Assembly (NCBI GenBank): GCA_963667665.2
Contig: OY763927.2
Location: forward strand, 544,001-608,000
Reading direction: 5' to 3'
Length of the DNA stretch: 64,000 nucleotides
Source: Nitrosopumilus sp.
GTDB taxonomy: Archaea > Thermoproteota > Nitrososphaeria > Nitrososphaerales > Nitrosopumilaceae
Both the position numbers and the translations under genes were made by a program. Of this stretch, positions 14,838 through 33,952 are shown piece after piece. Under the pieces are notes generated by a model that saw only the letters and a list, made by a program, of their open reading frames with translations, was not told the DNA's origin and ran no database searches. Within the stretch, counting starts at the first letter, position 1, and the number at the start of each line of letters is the position of its first letter.

Positions 14838-15065
14838 ATCTCAGAGCATTATTTTTGTCTGAAATAATCCCTAATAAATTCAGAAGGAATGTTTTTGTGT
14901 TTTTCTATCAGTTCATTATATTTCAGGTGATTCTGTCAAAACAGAGTTTCCATTCTTGGTGTTTTGGAATTGTGGCATTATAAGAAAAATAAAAAGAGAT
15001 TAGCACGCTGGCCTAACCTAACTAAGAACTAACATTGTTACTTTGTATTTTATAATAAACTTTGT

Positions 15066-15136
15066 GGGCCTGTAGCATGAGGGTCATACACCTAAGTAAG
15101 AACTAGGAGATTTGGGTTCAACTCCCAACAGGTCCA
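15066..15136 (+). tRNA. degenerate tRNA-like element (nominal anticodon AAG, short variable loop)
   Basis: Acceptor GGGCCTG/CAGGTCC+A; T arm TTGGG-TTCAACT-CCCAA; anticodon arm CCTAA-GTAAGAA-CTAGG with one mismatch; D stem GCAT/ATAC with one mismatch. Confidence 0.65.
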
Positions 15137-15310
15137 CACTACACATAATGTACATTTAGGTAAAAATTATTCAAGGAAATTTCTGAAATACCTAGCAACA
15201 GATTCTGAAACTTTGACTAATATGTCATTAGATTTTGGTTTGTCTTTCTCCAAATATCTGAAATTTCTTGATTTTATTTCCCCTTTAATACAAATCATTC
15301 TTGTATAGTT

Positions 15311-17613: not shown

Positions 17614-18068
17614 CAGAATCTTTTACGCCTAAAACGATTAAATCCTTAAAAGCTCAGAAACCATATTATGTCATGTTAGCAAGACAGGAAAACGAAAAAC
17701 CAATAATTGAGATTCCCTTAAAGAAACACAAAACAATGGAGATCACGAATCTCAAACTGGCAGTATTTGATTCTAAAAATATAAAGTTGCGCATTCCAGT
17801 ACAGAATATTCGCTCTATTGTACCGCTAAAAAAAGACAAGATACGAATCCAGTATTACGAGCAGGTTCAAAACAATGATCCCATAGTGACATTCAAGCGA
17901 AAATATGTGGACTATGATCTGGAAAAGCCTGAACTTTCTGCCTTACAGTTGTGCCATAAAATAAAAAGTGGGCATGAACGACTAAACACATGGAGCAAAA
18001 ATGACAAGGGACTATTGTTACTACAGCCACAGATTTTGAAGACGCTGCAGATGTATGGAACTCTGTGA
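17610..18068 (+). CDS. hypothetical protein (3' end probably chimeric)
   Basis: Coupled to the VirB6-like gene; runs into the matrixin fragment. Confidence 0.45.
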   Translation: MTESFTPKTIKSLKAQKPYYVMLARQENEKPIIEIPLKKHKTMEITNLKLAVFDSKNIKLRIPVQNIRSIVPLKKDKIRIQYYEQVQNNDPIVTFKRKYVDYDLEKPELSALQLCHKIKSGHERLNTWSKNDKGLLLLQPQILKTLQMYGTL

Positions 18069-18427
18069 GTAATTCATGGTGGGACTTTACAAGAGATGAT
18101 TCAAGTAATGATGTAGAAATTGGCGCATGGTTTATGGGTTGGCATATATCAACATTAGCTGAAACCACATGGTATGACCATAATGGTTCTATGTTATGGG
18201 CTTTTGTAGATTTTAACAATGCTAAAGATTTTAGAGATGTTAATGTCTCTCAAGGGTGGTGGTCTTTTGACTATGAAACTGTTGCCATCCATGAAATCGG
18301 ACATGTAGCTGGTATCCATGATCATACAACAACAACAAGTTCTCCAATGAAAGCCTCAATTCCATCCAATAATGTAGATAGAACATTGAACAGTCATGAT
18401 AAAACAACAATTAGGGGTATGTATTAA
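18065..18427 (+). pseudogene. C-terminal fragment of a matrixin-like zinc metalloprotease
   Basis: HEIGHVAGIHDH and SPM Met-turn; no N-terminal part or signal peptide. Confidence 0.7.
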
Positions 18428-18428
18428 G

Positions 18429-18998
18429 ATGAATAAAAAACTATTACTACCTCTTTTGGTACTTGTTGTAATTCCTGTTCTTATATTTAGTCAACCAAAT
18501 GCTGATACAATAGGGAAACAATTTGCAATTGACAACCCAGGTATATCTATTGGTGTTAGTACTTCAGAAGAGGCTTTAACAGAAGAGCAAGAGATAAACA
18601 GAGCATCTCTTATTATTGAAGGAACTATCCTAGAAGCCAAACCATTCTGGAAGATTATCCATAATGATAAACCACCTAGAATTTACACCGAATTTACTGT
18701 TAAAGTAGACGATGTCATCAAAGGTGATATAAAATCTCAAACTATCACATTTGTAATTGGTGGTGGTGATTTAGATGGAATAATTTCTAGAACAGAGTCA
18801 GTAGATCTCACTGTGGGAGAACAAGTAATCTTATTACTTGGAAAAGATATCCATAGTATATTTGGGGACACATATAACCCAATATCTATCTCAAAATCTA
18901 TTTACAAAATTGAAGATGGTCAAGCAATAAACAAACTAGATGATAGAACAGGCAACAAAGACGACGTAAAAGAGAGAATATCTGATCTATTAAGATAG
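18429..18998 (+). CDS. secreted or membrane-anchored protein downstream of the protease
   Basis: MNKKLLLPLLVLVV signal; A.LII.G.I...TEF.V.V..V.KG beta-rich pattern. Confidence 0.6.
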   Translation: MNKKLLLPLLVLVVIPVLIFSQPNADTIGKQFAIDNPGISIGVSTSEEALTEEQEINRASLIIEGTILEAKPFWKIIHNDKPPRIYTEFTVKVDDVIKGDIKSQTITFVIGGGDLDGIISRTESVDLTVGEQVILLLGKDIHSIFGDTYNPISISKSIYKIEDGQAINKLDDRTGNKDDVKERISDLLR

Positions 18999-19069
18999 AT
19001 ATCCTTATTTTTTTTATGAATATTAATCAAAGAATTATAACATCATATAATAACATCTAATCATGCGAA

Positions 19070-19315
19070 TTGACTGCTGCAGGAATTGCAATCATGTTAA
19101 TATCTGGATGTTTTGCAATAGCTGATATATTCATACCTGGTTCAGATGATGCTCCAGACGAAAAGCCATTGTTTGGCGATTTTCTAATTGGTGCAATAGA
19201 TGAGATAATATACTATCTGAGATGGGCCGTATATCTGGCAATTATTGGTGGTGGAATGATGATAGGCATTTCACTGAGGCTGACCAATACAACACACATG
19301 ATGAAAACAAAGTAA
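19070..19315 (+). CDS. small two-TM protein, possible conjugative pilin-like
   Basis: Two hydrophobic segments; T4SS neighbourhood. Confidence 0.35.
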   Translation: MTAAGIAIMLISGCFAIADIFIPGSDDAPDEKPLFGDFLIGAIDEIIYYLRWAVYLAIIGGGMMIGISLRLTNTTHMMKTK

Positions 19316-19317
19316 TC

Positions 19318-19707
19318 ATGTTGTCCTCTTTTTTCTATACATGTATCACTGCCGTATCTTCTACATTTGCAGGAATATTTGTAAATGTGTTTTTCAATGA
19401 TTTTGGAATCATACCTGCCATAATATTTTATGCTTGTGCGTTCTTTACAGACTATCACTCTACAGTCAGGGTAAGAAATTTTACAAAACATGAGACAAAC
19501 CCGCTGTTTTGTATATTCTCAAAAAGACTCTCCTCTGGAATGTCATTTGGAATAATATTTGCAATAGGCATTGGAATAAACATCATATCATACGCTGTAC
19601 TGGCAGACCCAATAATATCATACGTTCTTGGCATGTGTCATCTGTGTGCAGCAGCAAACAACTATCACATATCTAAAAAAATCATACTGACGGATAATGT
19701 ATCATGA
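19318..19707 (+). CDS. membrane protein with E.NP motif (DUF5658-like)
   Basis: D..ST......E.NPL followed by TM helices. Confidence 0.45.
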   Translation: MLSSFFYTCITAVSSTFAGIFVNVFFNDFGIIPAIIFYACAFFTDYHSTVRVRNFTKHETNPLFCIFSKRLSSGMSFGIIFAIGIGINIISYAVLADPIISYVLGMCHLCAAANNYHISKKIILTDNVS

Positions 19708-20222
19708 TCCTAATGAATATCATAAACGTGAATGCAAAGGCTAAAATATCCGGGTTTGACACTGATGCAATTATTGATGGCATTACTAATGCAGAATACA
19801 GACCAAACGGATTTCCAGCTATTTGTATTGGCAGTGACTCAGGAATCACTATCTCGTTGTTTGATTCAGGCAAGATAAACTCAAAGCGTGCAAAGTCCAC
19901 TGATTCTGCCATACTGGCAATCAATAATTTTGTCAAAACATTAAAAAAACTTGGAATGAAAATATCCATTCTCTCTAAGCCTTCCATATATCTAATTGTA
20001 ACAAATGTATTCTATGAAAAAAGAATAAACATCAAATCCCTCAAGAGTTTACCGGAATTCAAAAAGGAGATAAAACGATTCAGCTCAATCCAACTTGTAT
20101 TTCCTAACAATGTCAATGTTCTGGCATACGAGAATTCATTGAGGGTTTCAGGGAATGACATATCACATATGATGCAGGTGGTAAACAGCCTGAAAAAACA
20201 CACAATTCCTGCGGTGAAATAA
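19704..20222 (+). CDS. tbp: divergent TATA-box binding protein (TBP)-like
   Basis: First repeat NIINVNA...EY.P..FPA.....LF.SGK....AKS...AI...L...G; second repeat degenerate; 172 aa. Confidence 0.72.
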   Translation: MILMNIINVNAKAKISGFDTDAIIDGITNAEYRPNGFPAICIGSDSGITISLFDSGKINSKRAKSTDSAILAINNFVKTLKKLGMKISILSKPSIYLIVTNVFYEKRINIKSLKSLPEFKKEIKRFSSIQLVFPNNVNVLAYENSLRVSGNDISHMMQVVNSLKKHTIPAVK

Positions 20223-20228
20223 TAATGG

Positions 20229-20627
20229 ATGCAACATATGAACATATTTCTATTCACCGGAGTAATTACTGCAACGGCAATTACCCTATTGTTCTCTAGC
20301 GGTCAGTTTGATACAACCAGACTTGCATTTGAGAGTGCCATTACAGCAAAGCAGACAAACGGCATGATATATCTCACATATTCCATTTACAATACCGGTA
20401 CGACAGACATTGTCTTCATTGAAGTTAATGCTGACTGTTGCAGCACATCCCCCAATACCCCTACAGACTATCCAATTTTTCCAAGAAGCGATACCGGGCA
20501 GATATCTACCATGCTACAACTTCATGGAACCATATTGAATTACGGTGATGCTTTTTTGGTAACATTTCAGGTGGAGGACAATCTTGGAAATACCAAAACC
20601 AGTATAGAGCCAGTCAGGATTGGTTAA
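20229..20627 (+). CDS. archaeal pilin-like or Ig-fold surface protein
   Basis: N-terminal hydrophobic helix; I.NTGT.DI..I.V beta pattern. Confidence 0.45.
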   Translation: MQHMNIFLFTGVITATAITLLFSSGQFDTTRLAFESAITAKQTNGMIYLTYSIYNTGTTDIVFIEVNADCCSTSPNTPTDYPIFPRSDTGQISTMLQLHGTILNYGDAFLVTFQVEDNLGNTKTSIEPVRIG

Positions 20628-20862
20628 TAATGATAACTTTGATGTTTTTACACCGTTTAATCTCAGAATAATTGTGAAATTTATGGTTTATAGTGAAAAA
20701 TCCCTATCTCATACCAGAATTGTTTCTTATCCTGACTGTCAATTTTACATTGTACTTTCTGTGTGTCCTGTATAATTTTTCATATTCAGAATTGAATACT
20801 AGGAGCAAATGTCCCGAGTTTGGAACAGTGTATTAAAATCTTAAAAAGAAGAACAGCATAAG

Positions 20863-21090
20863 ATGTCCATGAGTGACAGTGCAGATACGCCAGTTGAACA
20901 AAAGTCATATCCAAGTAAGATATGGTATGTGGGGCATCTCTTTTTCGGGATAATAACCGGATTGATATGTTATATTATTTGGCAAGACAAAAACAAAGAA
21001 GCTGCAAGAAAACACTTGATTCACAGCATCTGGATTGGATTCATTCCTGTTTTCATTATGATTTTAATTGCATTTCTGGTTTTCATTTAA
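20863..21090 (+). CDS. small membrane protein
   Basis: PSKIWY..LFFGII.GLI.Y; the same motif occurs inside the 40383-41966 protein. Confidence 0.6.
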   Translation: MSMSDSADTPVEQKSYPSKIWYVGHLFFGIITGLICYIIWQDKNKEAARKHLIHSIWIGFIPVFIMILIAFLVFI

Positions 21091-21255
21091 TAGTCAGTAA
21101 AGATTTTGGCTATAAAGAGAACATTGGAAAAAGACAATGGTTTTTCTGAGATCAGTAGATAGGAAAGTGTTATCCAACATAATCTAGAAAATAATTTCTT
21201 TAATTAGAAGGATATTCCCAACCACAATCATAACAGCAAAATATGATCCTGTTGC

Positions 21256-23145
21256 ATGTCTTCATTTCACTCTAGAATTTCAAAAAATTCCCCTTTAATA
21301 CAAAAACTATTCTACATTACAGTGAAAACAAAGCAGATAAAGTCATTCAAACTGGACCCATTTAATCTTGAATTTGCATTAGTCTCTACAGATGTTGCAG
21401 GAATATCAGAAAAAGAGCTATCCATATTATCATTTCTCTCATTCTTTGACAAGTTTACAGAGCCATTCTCCATTGATGTAGTGCGAGACTATGAGGATTT
21501 GCTATTCTACAAAACCATAAGGAGTTGCAGATTTGATAATGTAATAATTAACACAAGCCAGGAAAACCCTGAAAACATCCTACCTGGCGTATCATCTGCA
21601 TCTACCAGAAAGTGGGAAATAACAGAGGAGCATCCTGATTATTGTATATTAAAAGATGGATTATACTGTAAAACATACACGTTATCCATGCTTCATGATG
21701 ACTTGCCACCTGGATGGATTTACGGGTTGTATCAATATTCTGATGCAATAAGAATATTTGTAGAGCCTATACCTGACGGAAAGACACAATCAACAATTGC
21801 AAACCACAAGTCAGCTGCTGCCACAATGTCATCAGCCACTGGCATGAACTCGACTGATAATATCTCAATAATAAAAGAGTTGGTCCTAAACAAGAAAAAC
21901 CAGAAACTGTTCTTTACTAGAATAAACATTGTACTACTTGCAGCGGATGTCTCATCATTGCGCTCTAGAGAAAAAGAGTTTCTACAAAATACAAAAAACA
22001 TTCCAGGTATTGAGACTGCAAAACATGTCCAGAAAAAATTACTCCACGGAACAGAAGGTCAGAGAATTTTAATGGTGAGCAGTGCGTTTCACTGTCTTAT
22101 TCCGTTTGTAACATCAGAATTGTACGAGGAAGGCGGCATACTGTTGGGGGAAAATACAATGACAGGAAATCCAATCAGATGGAACATCAATAACCGTATC
22201 AATAGAAACACTGTACTTGCATCTACTTCTGGATCTGGCAAGACAACACTTGCAATGATGATAATTCATGCCTTTGAAAAGATGCATCATAACGCGTTTA
22301 TCTTTGGAGTTGATCCTGAAAACGAGTATGCAGTACTGGGTCAGAACATGGGATTTACCTGTGTGGATTATTCCTTTGGAAAAAAGATGGGTCTTGATTT
22401 ATTCAAGATGGTCCCAGATACTTTTGCTGCAACTGAAACATTGTGCAATGCGCTAAACGTTCCAGAAGTGGACAGAATCATTCCAAATATGGCTGCAACC
22501 ACCCTTGCAAATCTTGACATCTCGCACAGAAGCTTTACAAAATTCTATGAGATAATGGAAAAAAACGAAACAGACAATCACGCCCTAAAATATTTTAAGA
22601 TGTTGACTATTCCTCCATATTCTGACTTTTTTGAAGGGGAACCACCAAAGTCTAACAAGATAATTCTATCGCTAAAAAACATCGGCAGTGCTGGTGGAAC
22701 AGTACACAGACTAATCACACAGATTGCACTGTCTTATGCAATGGGCAGGGCATTGCTAATGCCCAAAATAATTCCGAAACTATTCATGCTAGATGAGGTG
22801 TGGATGTTACTACAACACGACTCTCTTGGTAATTATATTCAGAACTTGTCAAGACGTGGAAGAAAATACAACATCAATCTCATGATGGCAACTCAGAACA
22901 TTGAGGATATGACAGATAATGTATCTGCTCGAAACGTCCTGGTGAACAGTGACACTGTTATGTTTCTCAGGCAAAGTGAGGCTACTGCAAAATCACTCAG
23001 AGAACACTTTGTACTCTCTGATAATGCCGTCTCCTATATGATGAGATTAAACAGGGGACAGGCACTGATAAAATACGGAAATAGCATGGTTCCTGTAAAT
23101 ATCTTACCTGATGATGAGCAGTTAAAACTGTTCAGACCGAGATGA
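21256..23145 (+). CDS. virB4: VirB4-like conjugation ATPase
   Basis: STSGSGKT Walker A, DPENEY, LDEVW Walker B, RRGRKYN, ATQ. Confidence 0.85.
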   Translation: MSSFHSRISKNSPLIQKLFYITVKTKQIKSFKLDPFNLEFALVSTDVAGISEKELSILSFLSFFDKFTEPFSIDVVRDYEDLLFYKTIRSCRFDNVIINTSQENPENILPGVSSASTRKWEITEEHPDYCILKDGLYCKTYTLSMLHDDLPPGWIYGLYQYSDAIRIFVEPIPDGKTQSTIANHKSAAATMSSATGMNSTDNISIIKELVLNKKNQKLFFTRINIVLLAADVSSLRSREKEFLQNTKNIPGIETAKHVQKKLLHGTEGQRILMVSSAFHCLIPFVTSELYEEGGILLGENTMTGNPIRWNINNRINRNTVLASTSGSGKTTLAMMIIHAFEKMHHNAFIFGVDPENEYAVLGQNMGFTCVDYSFGKKMGLDLFKMVPDTFAATETLCNALNVPEVDRIIPNMAATTLANLDISHRSFTKFYEIMEKNETDNHALKYFKMLTIPPYSDFFEGEPPKSNKIILSLKNIGSAGGTVHRLITQIALSYAMGRALLMPKIIPKLFMLDEVWMLLQHDSLGNYIQNLSRRGRKYNINLMMATQNIEDMTDNVSARNVLVNSDTVMFLRQSEATAKSLREHFVLSDNAVSYMMRLNRGQALIKYGNSMVPVNILPDDEQLKLFRPR

Positions 23146-23299
23146 TATCTGTGCTAGATTGTTTTCTTTGATTTTTTATAGACATTCCTTACAACAAGAT
23201 CACACCATTAGATTACCGCCAGTTAAATTCATGACAGAATCAAAACATATTCAGATTTTGATTATGTATGAGGATAAATAAAAAAGAAACAATATAAAA

Positions 23300-23680
23300 T
23301 CAGGGTTTTGGCAAACCTTTGATTTTTTCTATTTGTTGTACCATATCAGGCATTTGTGCAGGAATCTCAAGAATATCTATTCTTTCATCTGTATTCGAAT
23401 CATAGCTTAGTGGATCATATTCATAATGCGATATCCATACTGGAGGTTCTAGTACGACTTTTTTACCGTTTATTGAAGTTATTTTTAGTATTTCCATATG
23501 ATCTAGTTTTTTGTTGTATACAATTTGAAACCCAACTGTTGTCAAATCATCATGATCATGTACTGTTTTTGCAATTTCCTTTATGGTATATGTAAAGGCA
23601 CTAGTCATCACTTGTTGCAATCTCTCTTCATCTGATTCTTTGGAATGTTTACTCATTATAGCATCCAAACAATTTTGCAT
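23300..23680 (-). CDS. hypothetical protein
   Basis: ORF followed by a T-rich terminator. Confidence 0.45.
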   Translation of the reverse strand: MQNCLDAIMSKHSKESDEERLQQVMTSAFTYTIKEIAKTVHDHDDLTTVGFQIVYNKKLDHMEILKITSINGKKVVLEPPVWISHYEYDPLSYDSNTDERIDILEIPAQMPDMVQQIEKIKGLPKP

Positions 23681-23790
23681 AAAAAGGAAAAAATTTACCC
23701 AGTCTCATCTATTGAAAGTCATCTTCCATACACGCTTAAAATTACTTGTTTTGTAGGTCATGTGATCTCTTCTATGGATTCAGTCATGAA

Positions 23791-23837
23791 GGTTCTGGTA
23801 AATTCTAATGATCTGATCACCAAAATCTACCAGAACC
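23791..23837. repeat. 47-bp imperfect palindrome (head-to-head TIR mini-element), copy 1
   Basis: GGTTCTGGTAAATTCTAATGATC-T-GATCACCAAAATCTACCAGAACC; reverse-complement copies at 46262 and 48668. Confidence 0.8.
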
Positions 23838-23900
23838 TATGTATGCAAACAAGATGAAATGATCACCATATTTTTATATATAAATTATTTATGATCGCAT

Positions 23901-24914
23901 ATGAGAAAGATTGTATTCATATTTGTGTTATTATTAATTGGTATTGCTCCATTAATCATTTCATCATACTCTGATTATGTCTCCCCAAAAAAACAGCTAG
24001 AATCTGGAGTATTGCCTGAGGATATACAATGTAGAGAGAATAAAGTACTTGTGATCAGAGATAATGGAAATCCAGCTTGTGTTAAAGAGGAAACTGCACA
24101 AAAAACAGGGTGGGATATCATTGCAACAGAGTTTGCACAAAAAATAGTTCCATCAAACCAAGAAGTTCAGATTAATGATAAAGTAGAAAATAATTTGATA
24201 GAACATGAATCTACAGTAGATAATGAGACAAACAATAATAATGAACAAGAATTCATAGTATTAGATTTTGGCTCTGATGTAGAGTATGTAGATGACGGTA
24301 GAGAACAATATAGAGCTAAATTACAGAAATCCCCTGCACCAGGGGATATGTTTGGCTATATTGATGAAGCTCTGGAAAAACATCCAGTAGATGCTGCTGG
24401 CCTGTTTAGAACACCAGCAATATCACATGAAAGATACTCTGTTAATCCAGGAGTTGGATTTTATCCACAAGACTGGATGCCATCACATGTTCCAGATGGA
24501 TATAGATTGCTGTATATTGATAATAGGCATTATGAAGAATTTGGTACTTATTGGATGAGAATATATTTTGTACCAAACACGTTTGAGTTAACGAAAGACA
24601 TCACAAACCTTGATTTAGATATGTCTCAAGGATTCAAAATATTTGTTGAGAAAAAAACACACCCATTAGATGAAATTGAAGATGAAATTGAGAATTATCG
24701 AGAACGTATAGAATCTGATTATGGATATGTAGGTAGATTCTTAGACTTGGAACGTGATGGAAAAACAGTTTGGGCATCAGAGACACAATCTGATTACAAT
24801 CACTATCATGCAACACTTAACTATAACTTTGATGAATATACCATAGTAGGAGTATCATCAAATTATCATACTCTAGAGGAATTACAACCAATATTTGATA
24901 GTATAATGAAATGA
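23901..24914 (+). CDS. secreted protein with thaumarchaeal P.KQ...C...PACV domain
   Basis: Signal peptide; SPKKQ...IQC...LVIR..GNPACV; WMP.HVPDG shared with 35233-36222. Confidence 0.65.
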   Translation: MRKIVFIFVLLLIGIAPLIISSYSDYVSPKKQLESGVLPEDIQCRENKVLVIRDNGNPACVKEETAQKTGWDIIATEFAQKIVPSNQEVQINDKVENNLIEHESTVDNETNNNNEQEFIVLDFGSDVEYVDDGREQYRAKLQKSPAPGDMFGYIDEALEKHPVDAAGLFRTPAISHERYSVNPGVGFYPQDWMPSHVPDGYRLLYIDNRHYEEFGTYWMRIYFVPNTFELTKDITNLDLDMSQGFKIFVEKKTHPLDEIEDEIENYRERIESDYGYVGRFLDLERDGKTVWASETQSDYNHYHATLNYNFDEYTIVGVSSNYHTLEELQPIFDSIMK

Positions 24915-24922
24915 AATACATC

Positions 24923-25804
24923 CCCAACTTATCCTAAAACTCTCCAGTACATCATAATTGATGCCAAATACACAAACCCAAGATAATTATCACAGTTCTT
25001 CTCATATCTGATTCTTGTTCTATGAAATCCATTCTTCAACCATGCAAAGAATCTCTCAACAACAAACCTTGTCTTGTTGTAATTGTTCTGCATGTTATTT
25101 GGTACGATGAATTTGGAATTATTCCTGTATGGAATGCAGCATCTGATAGAATGATTTCTCAGATAATTCCTGATGTATTTTGCATCATAGCCCTTGTCTG
25201 CATACACTGATACGATCTCTTCTATCATAGAATCATCTACAAAATCTGAAATTGATTCCATGACATCGATAAATTTCGTACTATCATGTTGATTTGCAGG
25301 ACTGCATACAATTGATATTGGCAATCCATTACTATCTACGGCAACATGTATTTTTGTACCTAGAATCTTCTTGAAACCATCATATCCAGTTACGTTGCCC
25401 CTTTTTTATTGGAAATTGATGATGAATCAACTGATATCTTTTGCAGATTAATCTTGTTTTGTTTGTAAGCTGATTTCATTATTCCAGAAAGAATCTTTTT
25501 CCATACTCCTTTTTGCTGCCAGTCTTGTAATCGTAGATGTGTAGTTGATTTGGAACCATACTTTTCTGGTAATTCTTCCCATCTGCATCCAACAGTTAGA
25601 ACAAATAGAATTCCATTAATTGTTGTTCTATCATCACATCTTGGTCTGCCTGTTCTTGCAGGTTTTGGTAAATGTGGTATAATTGATTTCCACTGTTTGT
25701 CTGTTAGTTCTTTATGAATCATAGAAATGATTTGATAGATGTTATTGTTAGATCTATACTATCATCAAATGTTTACAAAATGATCTGTTTTAGGATGAGT
25801 TGGG
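24923..25804 (-). mobile_element. IS5-family insertion sequence with split transposase (25390-25722 and 24929 to ~25400)
   Basis: 18-bp TIRs CCCAACTTATCCTAAAAC (24923-24940) and GTTTTAGGATGAGTTGGG (25787-25804), 17/18 match; ELTD.QW, GRPR, DSS, ADKGYD, R..VER.F.WLK; A6G4 run at the frame change. Confidence 0.9.
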
Positions 25805-26573
25805 TATCATTTTTGATATCTGATATCAGTTTTGGAATCAAGGCACCACCTCCTGCACAAACTACTGGGATTCCGGGATAGTCAATTACGACTTTTTCCA
25901 GAGAATCTGAAATGTTTGCGGCAAGGATTTTTCTTGCCTCATCGAGTTGCGGGGTGTTCTTTGAGAACAGTTTTTTATCCACATAACCTGATTTAGAAGA
26001 CGTAATGGATCTTGTAATGTCGCCAACACCATGCAAAAGTGTTTGGCCATATGCTATTGTATCGTGAGTTACAGCCATTATCTCAGTTGTACCCTGTCCT
26101 ATATGACACACTATTCCATCTTCTAACCCTTCATGATCAAGGGTTGCCTTTGCCTGAAACATCACACCAAAGAACTTTGGTGCAAATCTATCTTGAACTA
26201 CATTCTTGATTTTTTGGACGTAATCTTTTGCATTGTATGGAATGCCTGCAACGATTACACATTCTGAATAGTTTTGTGGACCGCCAGGCAATGCATCTTT
26301 TTGCAATACTATGACCTTCTCTAGTGCATGTTTTACCAACTCCATATAATCAGTAATGGATGTTGGTGCTCCCCTATACACTGGAGTCTTTAACACCATT
26401 GATTTTACTGACTCTTGTTTTGCTGCTTGCTCCCCGACAAGAACAGTTTTTTTTGATTCCAAGTCCATGCTTTTGCCTCTTGCAATTATTGATGGGAATG
26501 TAAATGTGCCATGTATGGTGGCAACTTTTACCAAACCCGTTCCAATGTCAAGACCGATGCAATTTTGTTTCAT
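25805..26573 (-). pseudogene. ParM/MreB-like actin-fold ATPase truncated by the IS5
   Basis: GLDIGTG.VK, IGQGTTE, AGGGA motifs; the last ORF codons come from the IS end. Confidence 0.75.
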
Positions 26574-26608
26574 GCTAACACCAGAACATTTTGAATTTAA
26601 GGTGCCAT

Positions 26609-26861
26609 TTTACTATCGTGTAATTACACGATAGTAAATCCCAACTATCGTGTAATTTGACGATACCCAAAATCCCTCCAAAAAAGAGGTTAACAAAACG
26701 CCCTTAATACAAAAACACTACTAGTAATTAAACAAAACCCAAAAAACACCAAAAACACACTTTACAGCATAGATAAGGAAAAATCCCAAGGATTCATACC
26801 AAATTCCAAAAACGCAATTTTTTCACAAAAACCAACCAAACTATCGCGTAATTACACGATA
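26609..26861. promoter_or_regulatory. three palindromic TATCGTGTAATTACACGATA-type sites
   Basis: Perfect 30-bp palindrome 26609-26638; imperfect copies 26644-26665 and 26840-26861. Confidence 0.7.
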
Positions 26862-26893
26862 TCAAAACCAACAAAATTTCTACAAAAATAAAA

Positions 26894-26963
26894 TAGAGGG
26901 CTATGATGAGACAGGCGTTGATCTGACACCAATATGATGACAGGCTTCTGTCTGAGCCCTCTA
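26894..26963 (+). ncRNA. dual-guide C/D-box sRNA
   Basis: C ATGATGA 26903-09, D' CTGA 26923-26, C' ATGATGA 26934-40, D CTGA 26952-55; terminal stem TAGAGGGCT/AGCCCTCTA; T-run downstream. Confidence 0.85.
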
Positions 26964-27020
26964 CAAATTTTTTGTATCAATGCTGTTAAAAATGTTAGCA
27001 CAGTCAAAGGTTTTGTCAAA

Positions 27021-27080
27021 CTGAGATATTATCTCCAACCCTGCAAAGAAATCGACTCAGCGAGTAGGGATTAAGAGATT
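27021..27080 (+). ncRNA. pseudoknot motif copy A (minimal)
   Basis: CTGAG/CTCAG crossed with CCCTGC/GTAGGG, plus ATCTC/GAGAT. Confidence 0.55.
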
Positions 27081-27347
27081 AAAAGAATTTTCTCAAATAC
27101 AAATACATCAAAGAGAACAACCAGTCCGCACAGCAGTATCATTTGGTTTATTGTAAAAAGAATAAATCAACAGGAATAAATTCCCGACATTGAATGATGA
27201 GGAACTATTCACACCAGAAATTATTTTTTTAACCCTAGCGCAAGCTATACTCTGGTGACGACATCAACTATCTACGGACAGACCAGTTACAATCTGCATT
27301 AGTTCAGCATTTGAGAGAAGACCACCATTTAGGTGAGGTAAAATACT

Positions 27348-27584
27348 ATGATGCGAAAAACACAAAGCAAAAAAATTCAAAACACAGGTACAAGTGTAAT
27401 AAACGTACAAAATACATCCAGCCAGAAACTACTTTTGGCAAAGAACTACCTTGAGCAGAAACTGGAATCTCAAGGATATAGAGGTCATGTAAGATACGAC
27501 CAAACCAGTCAAGGCTCTAATCCAGTACAGAGTCAAAGAGGGAACAGTAGCAGTTCTCAAAGACGGCAAACTCTGCATATTTGA
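27348..27584 (+). CDS. hypothetical protein (may be the frameshifted 5' part of the next gene)
   Basis: AGGTGAGG SD-like sequence upstream. Confidence 0.4.
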   Translation: MMRKTQSKKIQNTGTSVINVQNTSSQKLLLAKNYLEQKLESQGYRGHVRYDQTSQGSNPVQSQRGNSSSSQRRQTLHI

Positions 27585-27585
27585 G

Positions 27586-28407
27586 ATGCCAATGAAGAAA
27601 TTCAAAGGAGCATATCCATTGGAAGTACAATCAGTGGACATGGATTCAATCCAGACACAAAAAGCCACTTGCTGCAAGAGATGCCATACATGGAGACAAC
27701 AAGCAGACATAACACGATGTTCCTGTGGGGGATATCTTGTTCCAAGAAAGAGATTCTCTGTAGATACAGTAGAGTCATGGGATGAGCAATTCCTAGAGAT
27801 AGAATTTGCAAAAAAAGACATCAGAGCAGCAATAAGAACTGACAGAATTCTATCACGCAGACCAAGAAAATACCAAACAACAGGTATCACCCACAAACTC
27901 GCTGGAATATCATCTACAGAAATAGTAGATTCCCACAAAGAGGAATTGTTACTAATTCCAAGCGGTGATGATGTAAAGACTGTTCAGGTCAAACCAATAC
28001 TATCATGCAGTCTGATTTTTGTTGCTGCAATCAGTAGAGAAGACAAACCAGTTACAGACACAGACAAACTAGAGATTCTCAAAAAATACAACCTAGAGCC
28101 TGTAAATGATGATGCAAAAGACAGACAGTTCAAGTCCGAGGCAAAACAATTCATCAACCACACAACACCAATCCTATCTGAACAACTGATGGATTCATGG
28201 AACCATTCTGCATCTAGAAGACAGTCCAAAGTGTATAGAAGAAAGGTAAACTCTCTTGAGAAGAAATGGGACGGTACAGAATTGAGGAGACTGGACTACA
28301 AATATGGTCATCTATCAACCAAAAAAGACCGCAAAGAAAAGAACCAGCATATAACACAATCCTTTGCAAGCTCGATTCCTATCCCAACAGCAAATCAGAA
28401 AGCATAG
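27586..28407 (+). CDS. hypothetical zinc-ribbon protein
   Basis: CKRC...CSCGG; basic C-terminus. Confidence 0.55.
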   Translation: MPMKKFKGAYPLEVQSVDMDSIQTQKATCCKRCHTWRQQADITRCSCGGYLVPRKRFSVDTVESWDEQFLEIEFAKKDIRAAIRTDRILSRRPRKYQTTGITHKLAGISSTEIVDSHKEELLLIPSGDDVKTVQVKPILSCSLIFVAAISREDKPVTDTDKLEILKKYNLEPVNDDAKDRQFKSEAKQFINHTTPILSEQLMDSWNHSASRRQSKVYRRKVNSLEKKWDGTELRRLDYKYGHLSTKKDRKEKNQHITQSFASSIPIPTANQKA

Positions 28408-28620
28408 ATGATGACTGCTGAAGAATCTGCATTGAAACAATTCCAGGACGAACCATTTTTTGAGGTTCTGGTACAATCAATATCAAGAAAGGCAACAGCA
28501 TATGCATATGCACAACTTGTACAGAAATCAAATCTGGGTTCTGGAAACACAGTTGACTGTATCATAAAAGAGCAGGTACAAAAAACAATCCACAAACTCG
28601 AAAAGATTGGACAGTCTTAA
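28408..28620 (+). CDS. hypothetical protein
   Basis: Abuts the upstream stop codon. Confidence 0.45.
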   Translation: MMTAEESALKQFQDEPFFEVLVQSISRKATAYAYAQLVQKSNLGSGNTVDCIIKEQVQKTIHKLEKIGQS

Positions 28621-28666
28621 AAGCAAGAGAATTCCAACAGGAATAATGTCTAAGACAAAAACTGAC

Positions 28667-28748
28667 TTTGACTGAGTCTATCGCTCCAACTCCGTTATTC
28701 TGGTATAATAATACCAGCTGACTCAGCAGAACGGATGTGTGAGTTGAT
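28667..28748 (+). ncRNA. pseudoknot motif copy B
   Basis: CTGAGTC/GACTCAG crossed with TCCGTT/AACGGA; inner hairpin CTGGTAT/ATACCAG. Confidence 0.7.
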
Positions 28749-28766
28749 CCTTAAAGGAGGAAAAAA

Positions 28767-29459
28767 ATGGCAAAACAATTTATCAAAAGAACACTCATGG
28801 CAATAGTATTTACCATGTTGATTGTCATTGTAGCATCCCTTACATATCAGTATGTGGTTCCGATGGTACTTTCGATGGATACATCAAATGTGTCAGACGG
28901 AATAAACATTGGAAAAGGAATGTTGTACAATGCAAAAGAGCAGGTTATGAATGTCATGGGACAAAATGAAAAGAACTCTCAGGGAACACAAACTGATACT
29001 GCAAGTCAAGATGTAGAATTGTGGTACCAGAACAAAACAGTTGAAAAATCTCAAGGTACACAGACTAGTACAGCAAGTCAAGATGCAATACCATATGGTA
29101 CAGCACTTGGAGGCAAAGTCACCAAAATCGTAGACGGTGATACTCTAGATATTGATGGTACAAGAATCAGACTTGCGCTAGTCAATACACCAGAAAGAGA
29201 AGAAACAGGATATGCAGAAGCTACAGAATTTACAAGATTACACTGTCCAGTTGGTAGTACAGCAATGTATGATATGGATGATGGACAGAGAGATGGTTCT
29301 TACGGCAGAGTCATCGCAAAGGTGTGGTGCTTTGGATATCCAGTGGAGACACCAGACACATCATTGAATGCAATGCTGGTTAATTCAGGACATGCAGAAA
29401 TATTTCACAGATTCTGTAATACCAGTGAGTTTAGCAGTGATGAATGGGCAAACTGTTAG
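28767..29459 (+). CDS. membrane-anchored thermonuclease (SNase) family protein
   Basis: VTKIVDGDTL, IRLALVNTPE, YGRVIA, LN..LV..GHA. Confidence 0.85.
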   Translation: MAKQFIKRTLMAIVFTMLIVIVASLTYQYVVPMVLSMDTSNVSDGINIGKGMLYNAKEQVMNVMGQNEKNSQGTQTDTASQDVELWYQNKTVEKSQGTQTSTASQDAIPYGTALGGKVTKIVDGDTLDIDGTRIRLALVNTPEREETGYAEATEFTRLHCPVGSTAMYDMDDGQRDGSYGRVIAKVWCFGYPVETPDTSLNAMLVNSGHAEIFHRFCNTSEFSSDEWANC

Positions 29460-29482
29460 AGAATTTTCACACAAATATTTTT

Positions 29483-29557
29483 TTTGACCTGACAATCCTC
29501 TCAAATCCAATACCAGTGCAAATGCACCTGACAGGCAGATTGGATGTGAAGAAGGTT
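29483..29557 (+). ncRNA. pseudoknot motif copy C
   Basis: CCTG/CAGG crossed with ATCCAAT/ATTGGAT; inner hairpin GTGCA/TGCAC. Confidence 0.65.
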
Positions 29558-29589
29558 ATGATGCTTGCAGCATTACAAAAAAAAAAATC

Positions 29590-30006
29590 ATGACTGAACA
29601 AAACAATTCAGAGAAAATAAGAACCAGTCTAATGCGACGACAAAACGTGATATTTGTGGCAATGATAATAGTTGGGTTATTCCTGACCATCACGAGCCAG
29701 CTAATAGACAAACGACTGCTAAGTGAAGGCATAGCCTTTATTATAGTTGGATTCGTAGGTATGTTAATGTCTTGGACTACAATGGATATTGGCGCAAGTA
29801 TCAAGGAGGTAATCTATGATGTCGGCAGACAAAACCTGACAGTATTAGAATCCATTGCAAAATCTCAAAACGAGATGGTAAAATCTCTAAACGAGATGGT
29901 AAAATCTCTAAACGAGATGGTAAAATCTCTAAACGAGATGGTAAAATCTCTAAACGAGATGGTAAAATCTCTAAACGAGATAAAAGAAATCTTACAAGAC
30001 AAATAG
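29590..30006 (+). CDS. two-TM protein with heptad-repeat coiled-coil tail
   Basis: Two TM helices then (MVKSLNE)n. Confidence 0.6.
   Translation: MTEQNNSEKIRTSLMRRQNVIFVAMIIVGLFLTITSQLIDKRLLSEGIAFIIVGFVGMLMSWTTMDIGASIKEVIYDVGRQNLTVLESIAKSQNEMVKSLNEMVKSLNEMVKSLNEMVKSLNEMVKSLNEIKEILQDK
29860..29980 (+). repeat. 21-bp tandem repeat, about 5.7 units
   Basis: AAATCTCTAAACGAGATGGTA units. Confidence 0.9.
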
Positions 30007-30035
30007 ACTGAGTTTTTCAAAAACCCACAATTTTT

Positions 30036-30115
30036 TTTGACTGAGTCTACTGACCCAAACCCATTATTTTCATCAGTATGATGAGCCGACTCAGCGGATG
30101 GGTGTGCGATTGATT
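30036..30115 (+). ncRNA. pseudoknot motif copy D
   Basis: CTGAGTC/GACTCAG crossed with ACCCAT/ATGGGT; inner hairpin TCATCA/TGATGA. Confidence 0.7.
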
Positions 30116-30171
30116 GGAAAATCAAAGATTTTCAAGTTCCTAGAATCATTATACAGAAATATCCCAAAGGG

Positions 30172-30834
30172 ATGTTTTTACAAATGAATTCGCATAGGAA
30201 CCGTTCTACTGAAAACGTTATTTCAGAAATAAGGAGGTTGAACCGAATGGTCCAACAACTACAATACAAAAACAAGGTTCTGGAAATTAGCCAGGATGAA
30301 GACCCAGAATCCCCAAGAGAATGGGATAACACTGGAACAATGGTCTGCAAACATACCCAATACACACTGGGAGATGTACAGACACTTCTCACCTCATATG
30401 ATGAATACCTGGAGTCAAAAGGACTTGCACCAGAAGACATCGCAGTGATGTTGCCTTTGTATCTTCTTGATCACAGTGGCATCAGTATGTCATGCGGAGA
30501 GCGTGTCTATCCATATGATGACCCATGGGATTCATCAGCAGTTGGATTCATCTATGTGACAAAAGAAAAGATCAGAAAGGAATGGAATGTCAAGAAAATA
30601 TCCAAAGTCATCATAGGACATGTTACAGAAATGCTAGAAGCAGAAGTGGCAACATATGACCAATACCTCAGAGGAGATGTATACACATTTGTTCTGTACA
30701 CAAAACATACATGCAGTCTCAATGAGATTCATCTGGAAGTAATAGATAGCTGTTCTGGTTTTTACGGAGATCATGAAGAATCAGGACTGACAGATAACAT
30801 TGAGAACTTTGCAAAGTTTGAGGCAACACAATAG
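30172..30834 (+). CDS. conserved phage/plasmid-type hypothetical protein
   Basis: SPREWDN.G, LPLY..DHSG, WDS..VGFIY, E...YD.YL.G.VY, DSC.GFYG motifs recalled from mobile-element proteins. Confidence 0.55.
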   Translation: MFLQMNSHRNRSTENVISEIRRLNRMVQQLQYKNKVLEISQDEDPESPREWDNTGTMVCKHTQYTLGDVQTLLTSYDEYLESKGLAPEDIAVMLPLYLLDHSGISMSCGERVYPYDDPWDSSAVGFIYVTKEKIRKEWNVKKISKVIIGHVTEMLEAEVATYDQYLRGDVYTFVLYTKHTCSLNEIHLEVIDSCSGFYGDHEESGLTDNIENFAKFEATQ

Positions 30835-30836
30835 GA

Positions 30837-31268
30837 ATGTCTACACAAAATACAATTCCTGCATTATACCAGACCGATGGCATTCCATTTGATGAGAAAC
30901 TAATTCATCAGATATGGATTATTCCATCAATCAACTTTGTTTGGTGTGTGGCAGAACTAGACATTAAGACAAAAGAGGCATTCGGATATGCAAATCTGAA
31001 TGATGATGACATGGCAGAATGGGGCTATATTGATATCGTAGATATTGAGAAAAATGGAGCCAAACTAATATCCTCGCAAGCCATGTCGTTTAAGGAAGTA
31101 CTAGATATAGTACGACCCAAAAACGGATGTCCAGAATGTGGTTCTGATCAGTACAAATTTCAGAGCATCAAAAGAGGAGATCCTACTCTAAGTGATGACA
31201 CCTTTGAGCTGTGGATTTGCAGAAACTGCAACTATCAGCCATTCACAAATATCAGAGGACTGGTCTAA
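30837..31268 (+). CDS. DUF2958-like protein with C-terminal Zn ribbon
   Basis: W.VAELD.....FGY......EWGYI.I; CPEC...CRNC. Confidence 0.6.
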   Translation: MSTQNTIPALYQTDGIPFDEKLIHQIWIIPSINFVWCVAELDIKTKEAFGYANLNDDDMAEWGYIDIVDIEKNGAKLISSQAMSFKEVLDIVRPKNGCPECGSDQYKFQSIKRGDPTLSDDTFELWICRNCNYQPFTNIRGLV

Positions 31269-31269
31269 A

Positions 31270-31506
31270 ATGACATCCATTTCAGTCCTAACCCTGGACA
31301 GTGACGAGATCAAAGGACATCTAGAATGCAATGAAAGGAGAGTACATCAAATCATGGGAATGGCAAAACAAGGAAAATTTGCAGATATCATCATGGATTC
31401 TTTTTGGGAAACCATTGATGTATGTAATGATATCCTTGACTGTGAGGATGAATCTGGAAAAACATTCTATGAGAAACTAGGCCGAGAGTTGGAGGATGCA
31501 AAATAA
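31270..31506 (+). CDS. hypothetical acidic protein
   Basis: ATG immediately after the upstream stop. Confidence 0.45.
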   Translation: MTSISVLTLDSDEIKGHLECNERRVHQIMGMAKQGKFADIIMDSFWETIDVCNDILDCEDESGKTFYEKLGRELEDAK

Positions 31507-31933
31507 TGTCCAAATGGAGCATTACCCTCTCACGAGAAGCTGGAATATACACAACAGAGGAGATACCATGTGTGTAGGAACAGATCTTCTAGTACATGTA
31601 TTTGAGACGTTTGCGGCATACCATACACCACAGAAAACATTCAGACGTCTTTACTGTGAATCAGGACAAGCTGCAAAAAAGGCATACAGATACGCAAACA
31701 ACGACACAGAACAAAACCTTGATGAGATAATTCCAAAATGTAGTGACTGCCAAAAACCCAGAATGAAGACAAGTACCATAGTTCTAGTCTTTGAGGAACT
31801 CACAAAAATCAAAGAACCAGAACTGCTCAAAGAGATGTATGTCAATATTGGTGGTCCGTCAAGAAATGCATACCTAGTATGCAACAAGAAAACACAACGT
31901 ATAATTCAGAAACTAGAATTGTACAAAAAGTGA
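31496..31933 (+). CDS. hypothetical protein
   Basis: GGAGG upstream; co-oriented. Confidence 0.45.
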   Translation: MQNNVQMEHYPLTRSWNIHNRGDTMCVGTDLLVHVFETFAAYHTPQKTFRRLYCESGQAAKKAYRYANNDTEQNLDEIIPKCSDCQKPRMKTSTIVLVFEELTKIKEPELLKEMYVNIGGPSRNAYLVCNKKTQRIIQKLELYKK

Positions 31934-31969
31934 AAGAACAATCACTCTAAAAAAACAACTATTAGGGAA

Positions 31970-32173
31970 TTCCCCTGATGATTCAGTGATATCTCAAATG
32001 ATCCTCATACGAGGTGTTAGATATCATTGATGCTCAATTACTATTCTTGAAGAATTGTGATTGGGTTGGCTTTATCGCTAGTCGGTATTGCCGAAACCAT
32101 GAAATGTCATATCATATGACTATACAGTACTGTACAGCATATCGTACTTTGCTATTCAATCATGGTCGGGGAA
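31970..32173 (+). ncRNA. hammerhead-ribozyme-like structured RNA with multi-hairpin insertions
   Basis: TTCCC-CTGATGA...GGC..GCC-GAAA-CCATGA...TCATGG-TC-GGGGA. Confidence 0.5.
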
Positions 32174-32599
32174 AAATCAAAATTTTAAAAAAATAATAAC
32201 GATGATTCTTCTGACCATTCTTCACATGTGATACGTTGTCAGTCGTTACTGACAATTCTGAAAACAAGGCGATTAAATTCTTAAAAAGAATGTTACCAAT
32301 TACAATACAACCACAATGCAGGTTTGGGCAATGACCTCTTCTATTCCATGACATTCACGCACCAGGAAGCATTGATAACGGTCTGGCTGTAGATGCCAGC
32401 TACAGTCTCACTTGGAGGTGAAAAATTACAAATACTGGCAATCAAATTATTCCATTAAATACAAATTTTCCTTGATGGTATGATGTATTCACCATATCAT
32501 TATTTTGAATCAAAAAAACAGACCTGCACCAAACATTTGACAGATGCTCAAAAACACTGTGAAGATTAATATTTTCAATGATGTCAAAAAAAACTGTTA

Positions 32600-33952
32600 A
32601 TGGAGAAAAAGAAATTTCTCATTGTTGGAAGCGGAGGACGTGAAAGTGCTTTTGCCATGCAACTCATGCAAGACACGCAAGTTTATGCTGTCATTTCTCA
32701 CAAAAATCCGCTCATCATAGATTGTGTGATACAGTCAGGTGGCAAATATTTGGTCGGTGATGCAGATGATCCGCAAACAGTTCTGAACTTTGCAAAAGAG
32801 AACAACATAGATTACGCTTTTGTCAACGCAGATCAGCCATTGGCTAATGGTGTTGTTGATGTTCTACTTGATAATAATTTCAAGGCAATTGGTGGAACAA
32901 AGGATGCAACACGCATAGAGTGGGATAAAATTTACTCCATTCAAATGATGCAAAAAACGTGTCCAGAGTTTACGCCATTTTACAAAGTTGTTTCAAAAAC
33001 AGAAGAACTATCCGATGCAATAGAATTATTTGAATCAAAAAGACTAGAGATAGTGGTAAAACCACAAGGACTAACAGGAGGCAAAGGTGTCAAAGTAATG
33101 CCTGAACATCTGTCAACATATCATGACTGCATTGACTATGCATCTCTTCTTCTTGAGAAAAACCCTGACCAAAAGGTTCTGTTGGTAGAAAAGCTGCAAG
33201 GCATAGAGTTTACAATCATGGGAATCACTGATGGTACAAACTTGGTTGTATCTCCTGCAAGTTATGACTATCCGTTCAGACATGAGGATGACAAGGGTGC
33301 AGGAACCGGAGGCATGGGATGCTTTACCAACTCAGAGAAAAAACTTCCATTCATGACAGACCGTGACTTGGATGATTGCAGATACATCATGCAAAAAATA
33401 ATTGATGAGATGAAATTGAATCATCTGTTTTTTAACGGTGTTATCAATGGTGGCTTCTTTAAAACTAAACATGGCATAAAATTCATGGAGTTTAACGGAC
33501 GCTTTGGAGATCCTGAAGGATTAAACATTTTAAGCATTCTTGAAGGGTCATTCTCAGAACTGCTGATTCATCTTTGGAACAAGACACTATCTGATGATGT
33601 GGTTTCGTTTGTAAAAAAAGCAAGTGTTGTAAAATATCTGGTTGCACATGAATATCCAGAGCGAAGCGACAAGGCAATCTCTTTTAGCATTAATGAAAAG
33701 GCAATTAATAATCTTGGCGTAAAAACATTCTTTGCATCCTGCATAAAAACAGGAGCACAGCAATATGAAACCCTGAAAAAATCACGGGTTGTCGCATTTA
33801 GTGCGCTTTCAGACAACATAGATGAAGCTTCGTCTTTGATAAATAAAATAATTGAAATGCATGTCAATGGTGATTTGGAGTACAGACATGATATTGGTTC
33901 TCAAAAGAGTCTGGAAAAATTAAAAAAAATCAATGCTGAATTAACTCATTGA
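32600..33952 (+). CDS. purD: phosphoribosylamine-glycine ligase
   Basis: VGSGGRE.A, GGKGV, D.G..TGGMG, EFN.RFGDPE, YR.DIG. Confidence 0.9.
   Translation: MEKKKFLIVGSGGRESAFAMQLMQDTQVYAVISHKNPLIIDCVIQSGGKYLVGDADDPQTVLNFAKENNIDYAFVNADQPLANGVVDVLLDNNFKAIGGTKDATRIEWDKIYSIQMMQKTCPEFTPFYKVVSKTEELSDAIELFESKRLEIVVKPQGLTGGKGVKVMPEHLSTYHDCIDYASLLLEKNPDQKVLLVEKLQGIEFTIMGITDGTNLVVSPASYDYPFRHEDDKGAGTGGMGCFTNSEKKLPFMTDRDLDDCRYIMQKIIDEMKLNHLFFNGVINGGFFKTKHGIKFMEFNGRFGDPEGLNILSILEGSFSELLIHLWNKTLSDDVVSFVKKASVVKYLVAHEYPERSDKAISFSINEKAINNLGVKTFFASCIKTGAQQYETLKKSRVVAFSALSDNIDEASSLINKIIEMHVNGDLEYRHDIGSQKSLEKLKKINAELTH

Follow-up and report, generated by a model that had tools for sequence, protein, structure and literature searches.

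A family of covarying pseudoknotted elements, probably RNA, in front of mobile-island genes of ammonia-oxidising archaea

Background

To our knowledge, very few structured cis-acting RNAs are known from archaea, and the checks made here turned up no described example from mobile elements of Thaumarchaeota. The present analysis concerns a 64,000-nt stretch of DNA from Nitrosopumilus sp. (GenBank assembly GCA_963667665.2, contig OY763927.2, positions 544,001 to 608,000 of the forward strand), hereafter the window, in which a first-pass annotation had pointed out four copies (A to D) of an apparently unnamed, covarying pseudoknotted element between co-oriented genes. According to the results below, these copies belong to a real, previously undescribed family of structured elements of about 90 nt (85–100 nt), located in front of mobile-island genes of ammonia-oxidising archaea. 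This conclusion is well supported, and the new family is probably one of RNAs.

Among the described systems that come closest, the hepatitis delta virus (HDV) ribozyme combines a P3 whose loop L3 forms P1.1, a P4 hairpin, a catalytic C in J4/2, and a G+1 within P1. Integron attC sites are simple imperfect hairpins at the 3′ end of the upstream cassette and are used by IntI. Exonuclease-resistant RNAs (xrRNAs), as portrayed in passages of PMC8374639, are three-way junctions whose 5′ flank is tied back by a pseudoknot and whose structure begins at the protected 5′ end. Frpo elements, according to excerpts of PMC11541004, are long DNA hairpins that mimic a −35/−10 duplex promoter within the stem and are repeated before co-oriented early genes. 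Finally, FttA/aCPSF1 binds U-rich RNA, cuts it, and then digests 5′–3′, the cut being thought to fall about 22 nt behind the polymerase (sections of PMC11616081).

Results

Fold and covariation of the element

The predicted fold is a three-way junction composed of a closing helix P2, a variable hairpin P3, and a 3-bp hairpin P4. Its 5′ strand, P1a (CUGAG), is preceded by a conserved GA, usually with a T/U-run before it, and pairs with the 5–6-nt loop (A-CUCAG) of P4, which has the form C-Y-G(ACUCAG)C-R-G; the very 5′ end is thereby tied back to the junction. P2 measures ~11–15 bp, and its extension contains a conserved A.G mismatch and a 1-nt bulge. P3 ranges from 3 to 13 bp, with loops of 3–8 nt that change in sequence and are often of the GNRA type. 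By eye, neither a K-turn nor a bulge-helix-bulge motif was seen in the element.

This fold revises two details of the first-pass annotation. The "linker ending CAA" pairs with the 3′ tail as the P2 extension, which makes P2 a long closing helix, and the "C(R)GA" is the 3′ strand of the covarying stem P4, so that P1b becomes a hairpin loop. As for the inner hairpin, said to change in sequence while keeping its pairing, it is indeed present in copies B, C, and D, and P3 is variable throughout the family.

When given the four window copies alone, MAFFT misaligned copies A and C, and the model was therefore made from 30 relatives. RNAalifold found P2, the P2 extension, and P4 unaided (alignment A3, 30 distinct copies). 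Covariance model R1 was built without P1, the alignment being fitted to P2 and P4 only. Covariation was then measured on alignment A5, which holds 92 copies from 26 stretches and 14 sources (74 distinct rows) with P1 written as a pseudoknot. Over the distinct rows, 96.5% of the cells pair, compared with 83.4% after shuffling, and both sides are changed in 188 cells versus 50.0 in shuffled data, with 0 of 500 shuffles as high. Such two-sided changes occur in 14 of the 19 pairs, and as a control, sliding the 3′ partners leaves at most 39.2% of cells paired.

P1 covaries although it is absent from the model. Most copies have CUGAG/CUCAG; CCUG/CAGG, the type of window copy C, is found in 14 copies from 6 genomes, CCGAG/CUCGG in G485 (a genome from another family of the order) and in 2 copies on metagenome contig L233, and CUGG/CCAG once, besides several G.U variants. 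P4 exists in seven Watson-Crick versions (CCG/CGG, CUG/CAG, UCG/CGA, UAG/CUA, GGG/CCC, UGG/CCG, and CGG/CCG). Unpaired and near-invariant are G13, A14, C22, and A92 (A5 columns), to which the mismatch A41.G117 is added. The same junction results when each of the four window copies is folded by minimum free energy (MFE).

Judged by this family-wide covariation of aligned sequences, which extends to all its helices, the element is real. The case is tempered by three points. The shuffle statistics overstate independence because the rows are related, P1 is broken in about 15 of the 92 copies, and single-sequence z-scores are modest (−1.0 to −2.1), the minus strand folding about equally well.

Occurrence in the window and in relatives

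Reading the sequence from 26800 to 30400 located all four copies where the first-pass annotation had put them, with the P1 and P2 pairings given there (Table 1). In a covariance model search of the whole genome (1.89 Mb, E ≤ 1), exactly these four were reported. Topology alone is no evidence, since a loose pseudoknot descriptor (4 + 6 bp) has 1040 matches within the window. With a strict descriptor, the 1.89-Mb genome yields 18 matches versus 2–5 in 5 shuffles, a count that is circular because the descriptor came from the copies themselves; only the four matches in the window are G+C-rich and share the motifs.

Among 401 genomes of the family, 17 matched the pattern GACTGAG-N30-60-GACTCAGC. 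Five of them (G080, G288, G347, G372, and G390) were rejected as chance matches by the covariance model, and 12 remain. Several relatives contain arrays of 4–9 co-oriented copies with a spacing of 1.5–3 kb. Model R1 reports 94 matches at E ≤ 1 in the window and 22 loci (405 kb), co-oriented within each locus. Outside the family, G485 has one copy and, together with G000, makes 2 matched genomes of 151. Regarding IMG/VR, a tighter pattern gave 8 loci, 2 of them real according to the model, i.e., two copies on GC-rich contigs; the loose pattern hit at least 117 loci in viral contigs, with no model match among the 80 listed. For metagenomes, 17 copies were found on 9 of 80 contigs among the matches listed. 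The carriers of these elements are mobile islands of a single family, found in Nitrosopumilaceae and relatives.

Two relatives show tandem amplification. In G177 (L033–L035), a unit of ~1.9 kb consisting of a type 2 copy, a ~160-amino-acid (aa) gene, a type 1 copy, and a 330-aa zinc-ribbon gene is repeated at least 5 times. In G353 (L031–L032), the unit is one element followed by genes of 117, 95, and 112 aa, with at least 4 repeats. A 268-aa array protein of G353 (L031:13347–14153, minus strand) has a sub-threshold match to the ArdC N-terminal domain (E 5e-4, 20.7 bits vs a cut-off of 22.6), and proteins of this ArdC_N-like family stand beside elements in 6 genome sources.

Searches for known families support the novelty that had been proposed. 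At gathering thresholds, Rfam 15 matched only a tRNA in the whole window. At E ≤ 10 on 26500–30600, the only match overlapping a copy was freshwater-2 at 28701–28769 (20.9 bits vs a gathering score of 49.9, E 5.5), and L170, L042, and L040, with 8 copies between them, again yielded nothing but a tRNA at E ≤ 1. ARAGORN reported a single tRNA-Leu in the window, and the elements are not tRNA-like. In PMC6563490, a survey of thaumarchaeal integrated elements, the word "promoter" is absent, and the matching places listed (12 of 31) concern att repeats, terminal inverted repeats, and CRISPR repeats rather than these elements. A full-text literature search for self-cleaving ribozymes in Thaumarchaeota returned no papers, and no wider literature search for the motif was made.

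Table 1. Elements, genes, and signals of the window, with the helices of each copy
Feature	Position	Strand	Basis and details
tRNA-Leu	15066–15137		ARAGORN
TATA-binding protein (TBP) homologue	19704–20222		Pfam TBP 1.7e-09
TraG/VirB4-like P-loop ATPase	21256–23145		
Transposase fragments	24929–25722	−	
ParM/actin-like gene	25773–26573	−	
TATA-like octamer TTAAAAAT	26986–26993	+	Read from sequence; 25 nt upstream of copy A
Copy A (A-type, without P3 hairpin)	27019–27079	+	Sequence; model score 28.7 bits; P1 27021-25/27056-60; P2 extension 27031-35/27075-79; P2 27039-44/27064-69; P4 27052-54/27061-63, loop 27055-60; MFE fold recovers P2 extension, P2, P4
Genes behind copy A	27348–28407	+	78-aa open reading frame (ORF) and 273-aa zinc-ribbon protein
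Copy B	28667–28748	+	Sequence, MFE fold; model score 74.3 bits; P1 28672-76 (up to 28678)/28722-26; P2 extension about 28680-88/28738-48; P2 28691-96/28730-35; P3 28700-06/28711-17; P4 28718-20/28727-29; then AGGAGG and ATG 28767
Gene behind copy B	28767–29459	+	Staphylococcal-nuclease-like, N-terminal hydrophobic stretch; Pfam SNase 1.8e-05, phrog_452 1.3e-14
Copy C (type 2)	29478–29557	+	Sequence, MFE fold; model score 30.5 bits; T8 29478-85; P1 29488-91/29532-35 (CCUG/CAGG); P2 extension 29499-503/about 29547-53; P2 29505-11/29539-45; P3 29516-19/29524-27; P4 29528-30/29536-38
Gene behind copy C	29590–30006	+	Small membrane/coiled-coil protein with 21-nt tandem repeat
Copy D	30031–30112	+	Sequence, MFE fold; model score 82.5 bits; T8 30031-38; P1 30041-45/30090-94; P2 30059-64/30098-103; P3 30069-75/30079-85; P4 30086-88/30095-97
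Structured extension of copy D leader	30113–30246	+	Helices 30136-40/30197-201, 30143-50/30184-91, 30160-65/30169-74, 30209-14/30221-26
End of copy D leader	30231–30247	+	AAGGAGG 30231-37, then conserved ATG 30247
Gene behind copy D	30247–30834	+	phrog_6186 family
purD	32600		Looks like host DNA

Position relative to genes

Each copy is co-oriented with the next ORF, and the copies fall into classes by their distance to the start codon. In the class of copy B the start codon follows after ~22–24 nt, behind AGGAGG, in type 2 after ~34–45 nt, in the class of copy D, which has a structured extension, after ~135–150 nt, and in the A-type after ~270 nt. The first-pass figure of about 20–60 nt between copies B–D and their genes holds for B and C (21 and 33 nt, respectively), and copy D lies 134 nt from its start codon. 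On the upstream side, a T-run of at least 5 stands directly before GA in 74 of 90 copies, and copies C and D each follow a T8, as had been noted. In G353, the stop codon of the upstream gene is part of a hairpin; T7 comes next and the element directly after it, so that a separate promoter would have no space.

The subtypes travel with the downstream gene. The A-type precedes the orthologous zinc-ribbon gene in G177, G353, and G274, and type 2 precedes an orthologous membrane/coiled-coil gene (65% identity). Blocks of homology between islands start or end at the 5′ edge of the element (28664, 29475–83, and 30032–37), and RNA contigs have breakpoints there as well (28648, 28664, and 30040). The proposal that the element sits at the 5′ edge of gene modules is thus borne out.

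As for the A-type, it is located in a divergent intergenic region, and 3 of 4 A-type copies have an A/T-rich octamer similar to TTAAAAAT 25–27 nt upstream, from which a primary start would fall within a few nucleotides of the element edge.

Behind copy D, the leader continues as a second structure. In an alignment of 10 homologous leaders, RNAalifold predicts 45 pairs, 23 of which have changes on both sides; the covarying 134-nt stretch must consequently be a transcribed leader contiguous with copy D. The start of the longest ORF, ATG 30172, is inside a covarying leader hairpin, and the conserved start is ATG 30247. A promoter at ~30148–30163 with a leaderless start at 30172 was rejected on the grounds that this stretch lies in covarying helices. 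RNAalifold also proposed that the 5′ UUGACU pairs over a long range with the GGUUGA that follows the Shine-Dalgarno (SD) sequence (A6 columns 11–16/238–243); this pairing never varies and was not adopted. For type 2, a hidden SD at the start with a frameshifting A-run (29577–29587) was also rejected, the homologues starting 34–45 nt after the element.

RNA or DNA

Most likely, the element acts as a sense-strand RNA, which is favoured by GNRA loops, the covarying leader of copy D, and RNA contigs that cross the copies. Out of 24 P3 tetraloops, 15 are GNRA, and these occur on at least 8 different stems; on the opposite strand these would read UYNC. Next to the GC-rich copy L170 there is an adjoining C(UUCG)G hairpin. 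The co-orientation of the copies with the ORFs that follow them agrees with this strand. Among RNA-library contigs, X1 record 4 (29072–29877) crosses T8 and copy C, and others, in X1, X2, and X4, begin with foreign sequence upstream, join the window sequence at 28648, and continue through copy B. Stretches without RNA-contig cover, such as 27159–27395, carry no information.

Several observations pull in the other direction. The claim that G-U pairs favour the plus strand does not hold, as 25 G.U and 21 A.C cells over 72 distinct rows give no strand signal. The metatranscriptome data are contigs, in which two genes covered together do not amount to one transcript and neither RNA 5′ ends nor cleavage products or transcription starts were seen, and they serve as supporting evidence only, because library DNA may be present. 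The U-rich J2/3 of the commonest subtype looks TATA-like. Furthermore, T7–8 directly upstream should end archaeal transcription, so the element may be poorly transcribed.

Proposed role and alternative explanations

For the role of the element, we put about even chances on a module at the 5′ terminus of the leader by which the mRNA 5′ ends that lie behind U-tracts would be formed or protected, a reading drawn from the arrangement of the sequence. Each island gene or operon would have such a module. The first copy (copy A) would start the primary transcript, and the internal copies, which would stand directly behind the U-tract ending the upstream cistron, would set or shield the 5′ end of the RNA that follows, whether as a block to 5′–3′ exonucleases or as a processing site. 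The string of genes would thereby be expressed as stable separate messages. Since FttA/aCPSF1 cuts U-rich RNA and digests it 5′–3′, a structured block behind a U-tract is an attractive idea. The simple version in which the fold counteracts FttA termination is speculative, and it is weakened by the 22-nt distance of the FttA cut, which precedes formation of a 90-nt fold.

A stronger form of this proposal, reached by analogy, is conceivable, though we consider it unlikely. The element might be an RNA "end-maker" of the mobile element, being either a self-cleaving ribozyme of a new class or an exonuclease block like that of xrRNAs, which would be the first one outside eukaryotic viruses. One such unit behind each U-tract would cut the row of genes into stable, separately translated messages, or would let the products survive 5′–3′ attack of the FttA/aCPSF type. 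The likeness to xrRNAs is one of topology only. It consists in the three-way junction with a 5′-end pseudoknot, where P1a lies 2 nt from the 5′ edge and pairs, with covariation, with the P4 loop 3 bp away from the junction. XrRNAs and the present elements alike belong to mobile or viral genomes. In contrast to xrRNAs, the 5′ strand here has the loop of a 3-bp hairpin as its partner instead of a strand of the junction, neither a second "latch" pseudoknot nor a 15-nt ring was identified, the host is an archaeon, and no Rfam family is matched.

The specific possibility that the element is a new self-cleaving ribozyme cutting at its own 5′ edge (U-run/GA) is unlikely in our estimation. The upstream cistron would be released with a hairpin-U tail, and the fold would stay on the downstream mRNA. 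In its favour, the three-way junction is compact and pseudoknotted, a small number of its unpaired bases hardly vary (the G13, A14, C22, A41.G117, and A92 given above), the element occurs in many co-oriented copies between genes of mobile DNA, and its conserved unit starts exactly at the U-run/GA border, a position that resembles that of ribozymes cutting at their own 5′ edge. A weak hint is that the last position of X4 record 27, 29486, coincides with the first base of copy C. However, the element matches no model of a known ribozyme, the presumed cleavage site is spanned by RNA contigs in copies B and C, and the conserved unpaired positions number only about 7.

Rather unlikely as well is a promoter or operator at the DNA level, recognised by host machinery or by the TBP homologue that the island encodes, with a transcription factor B recognition element (BRE) and TATA box in CCAAACCC-R-UUUUAUUU and a start near GACUCAG. 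Such a function would fit copies of the 22–24-nt class, in which the element fills the gap between a terminator-like T-run and SD plus ATG, and the TATA-like J2/3 of type 1. A duplex promoter, however, needs no covariation of P1, P2, the P2 extension, and P4. Besides, the TATA-like stretch is missing from type 2, A-type, and GC-rich copies, and its distance to GACUCAG varies with the length of P3.

A recombination or cassette-boundary site of the integron attC kind, folded from single-stranded DNA (ssDNA) and shuffling gene modules, is improbable. Arrays of co-oriented modules with near-identical elements, the tandem amplification in G177 and G353, mosaic breakpoints at the 5′ edge of the element, and conservation of structure over sequence would all agree with it. 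Nevertheless, the breakpoints can be explained by homologous recombination between repeats, and the subtypes follow the downstream gene and not the upstream one, whereas attC belongs to the upstream cassette. The fold is a pseudoknotted three-way junction instead of the simple hairpin of attC (compared on the basis of excerpts of 10.1101/2022.02.06.479319), and no integrase was found beside the element, the integrase family being matched by 0 of 20 window ORFs scanned with Pfam. By eye, neither R″/R′ core sites nor RYYYAAC/GTTRRRY ends are present.

The ssDNA promoter proposed by the first-pass annotation, i.e., a folded promoter or priming signal acting right after conjugative entry (Frpo/ssi-like), is very improbable. 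The elements do resemble Frpo/ssi as repeated folds before co-oriented genes of a conjugation-related mobile element (in the excerpts of PMC11541004), the island has a TraG/VirB4-like ATPase, and the genes behind the elements include a nuclease and the weakly matching ArdC_N-like protein. In contrast to the promoter boxes in the Frpo stem, the sole A/T-rich TATA-like stretch here (J2/3) is unpaired and missing in several subtypes, the long Frpo hairpin is replaced by a 90-nt pseudoknotted junction, and the enrichment of GNRA loops points to RNA. The ArdC_N match is below the Pfam cut-off, and thaumarchaeal conjugative elements, according to passages of PMC6563490, are without relaxases and have no known oriT, and may move as double-stranded DNA.

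Membership in a divergent HDV-like ribozyme family, whose order P1 – P2 – hairpin – P1′ – P2′ the first-pass annotation had recognised in the element, can be practically dismissed. Further likenesses are a 5′-terminal strand pairing inside the region enclosed by a long-range helix, a short helix enclosing the 3′ strand of P1 (P1.1 in HDV, P4 here), and the place at the 5′ edge of the unit. However, the "C(R)GA" supposed to be J4/2 is paired in 6–7 covarying types, leaving no J4/2 cytosine (the C that follows P1b forms a pair with the G preceding P1b, and the two neighbouring P4 pairs covary, with CG 40/UA 25 and CG 57/UA 10 in A5), P4 and P2b are separated by 0–1 nt with no P4 hairpin in the HDV sense between P1′ and P2′, P3 is long, variable, and closed before P4 without L3/P1.1, GA precedes P1 instead of G+1 lying within it, and no HDV-type Rfam model matches at E ≤ 10.

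Returning to the leader module that forms or protects 5′ ends, it would, if true, reveal how the expression of tightly packed genes is arranged around U-tract terminators in a mobile element of archaea, and could give a portable RNA-stabilising or processing module for archaeal genetics. With more than 100 natural copies, compensatory changes in four helices, three subtypes, and GC-rich relatives, the family is well suited to experiments. Even if its function is at the DNA level, the element marks a distinct island family that is prone to tandem amplification and carries a ParM-like gene, zinc-ribbon proteins, a nuclease, and small membrane proteins.

Genes and minor features around the copies

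The window is archaeal, with about 33% G+C, and the elements lie in an island-like stretch. In 14900–33000, a search for att-type direct repeats (at least 18 nt) of tRNA-Leu gave none, and the island borders are therefore left undefined. In relatives, the two genes behind copy A are continuous or fused, and G000 and G177 share 51% identity here. The zinc-ribbon protein is encoded in 9 of the 401 family genomes, 7 of which are element-positive, and 5 element-positive genomes are without it; given this partial co-occurrence, no partner protein is proposed.

Near copy C, a palindromic hairpin (AUGCU-UGC-AGCAU, 29561–29573) follows directly and is kept behind type 2 copies in G177. The tandem repeat inside the gene behind copy C (29833–30000) has six copies of 21 nt (7 aa), and the summed RNA-contig depth of this bin, 300–1300, is far over that of its neighbours, probably because many related contigs pile up on the repeat. 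Further on, a second ACTGAG with T5 occurs at the stop codon of the same gene (30006–30016), ~30 nt before copy D. The same motif, GACTGAG-T4-5-CAAAAACC, precedes copies in G177, G274, and G353, even with a different reading frame, and from its sequence this upstream ACTGAG might compete with P1a for the P4 loop.

Upstream of copy A, by 46–60 nt, there is a C/D-box small-RNA-like gene (26898–26960, plus strand) with C, D′, C′, and D boxes and a terminal GGGCU/AGCCC stem. Several C/D-box models, archaeal and eukaryotic, match it with scores short of their gathering thresholds (best E 0.083), and an RNA contig diverges at its start, 26898. Finally, the intergenic region between the ParM-like gene and copy A contains three copies of a ~24–30-nt repeat that includes a near-perfect palindrome (26612–26641, 26644–26673, and 26840–26869) and, by its arrangement, looks like a partition-centromere or operator site.

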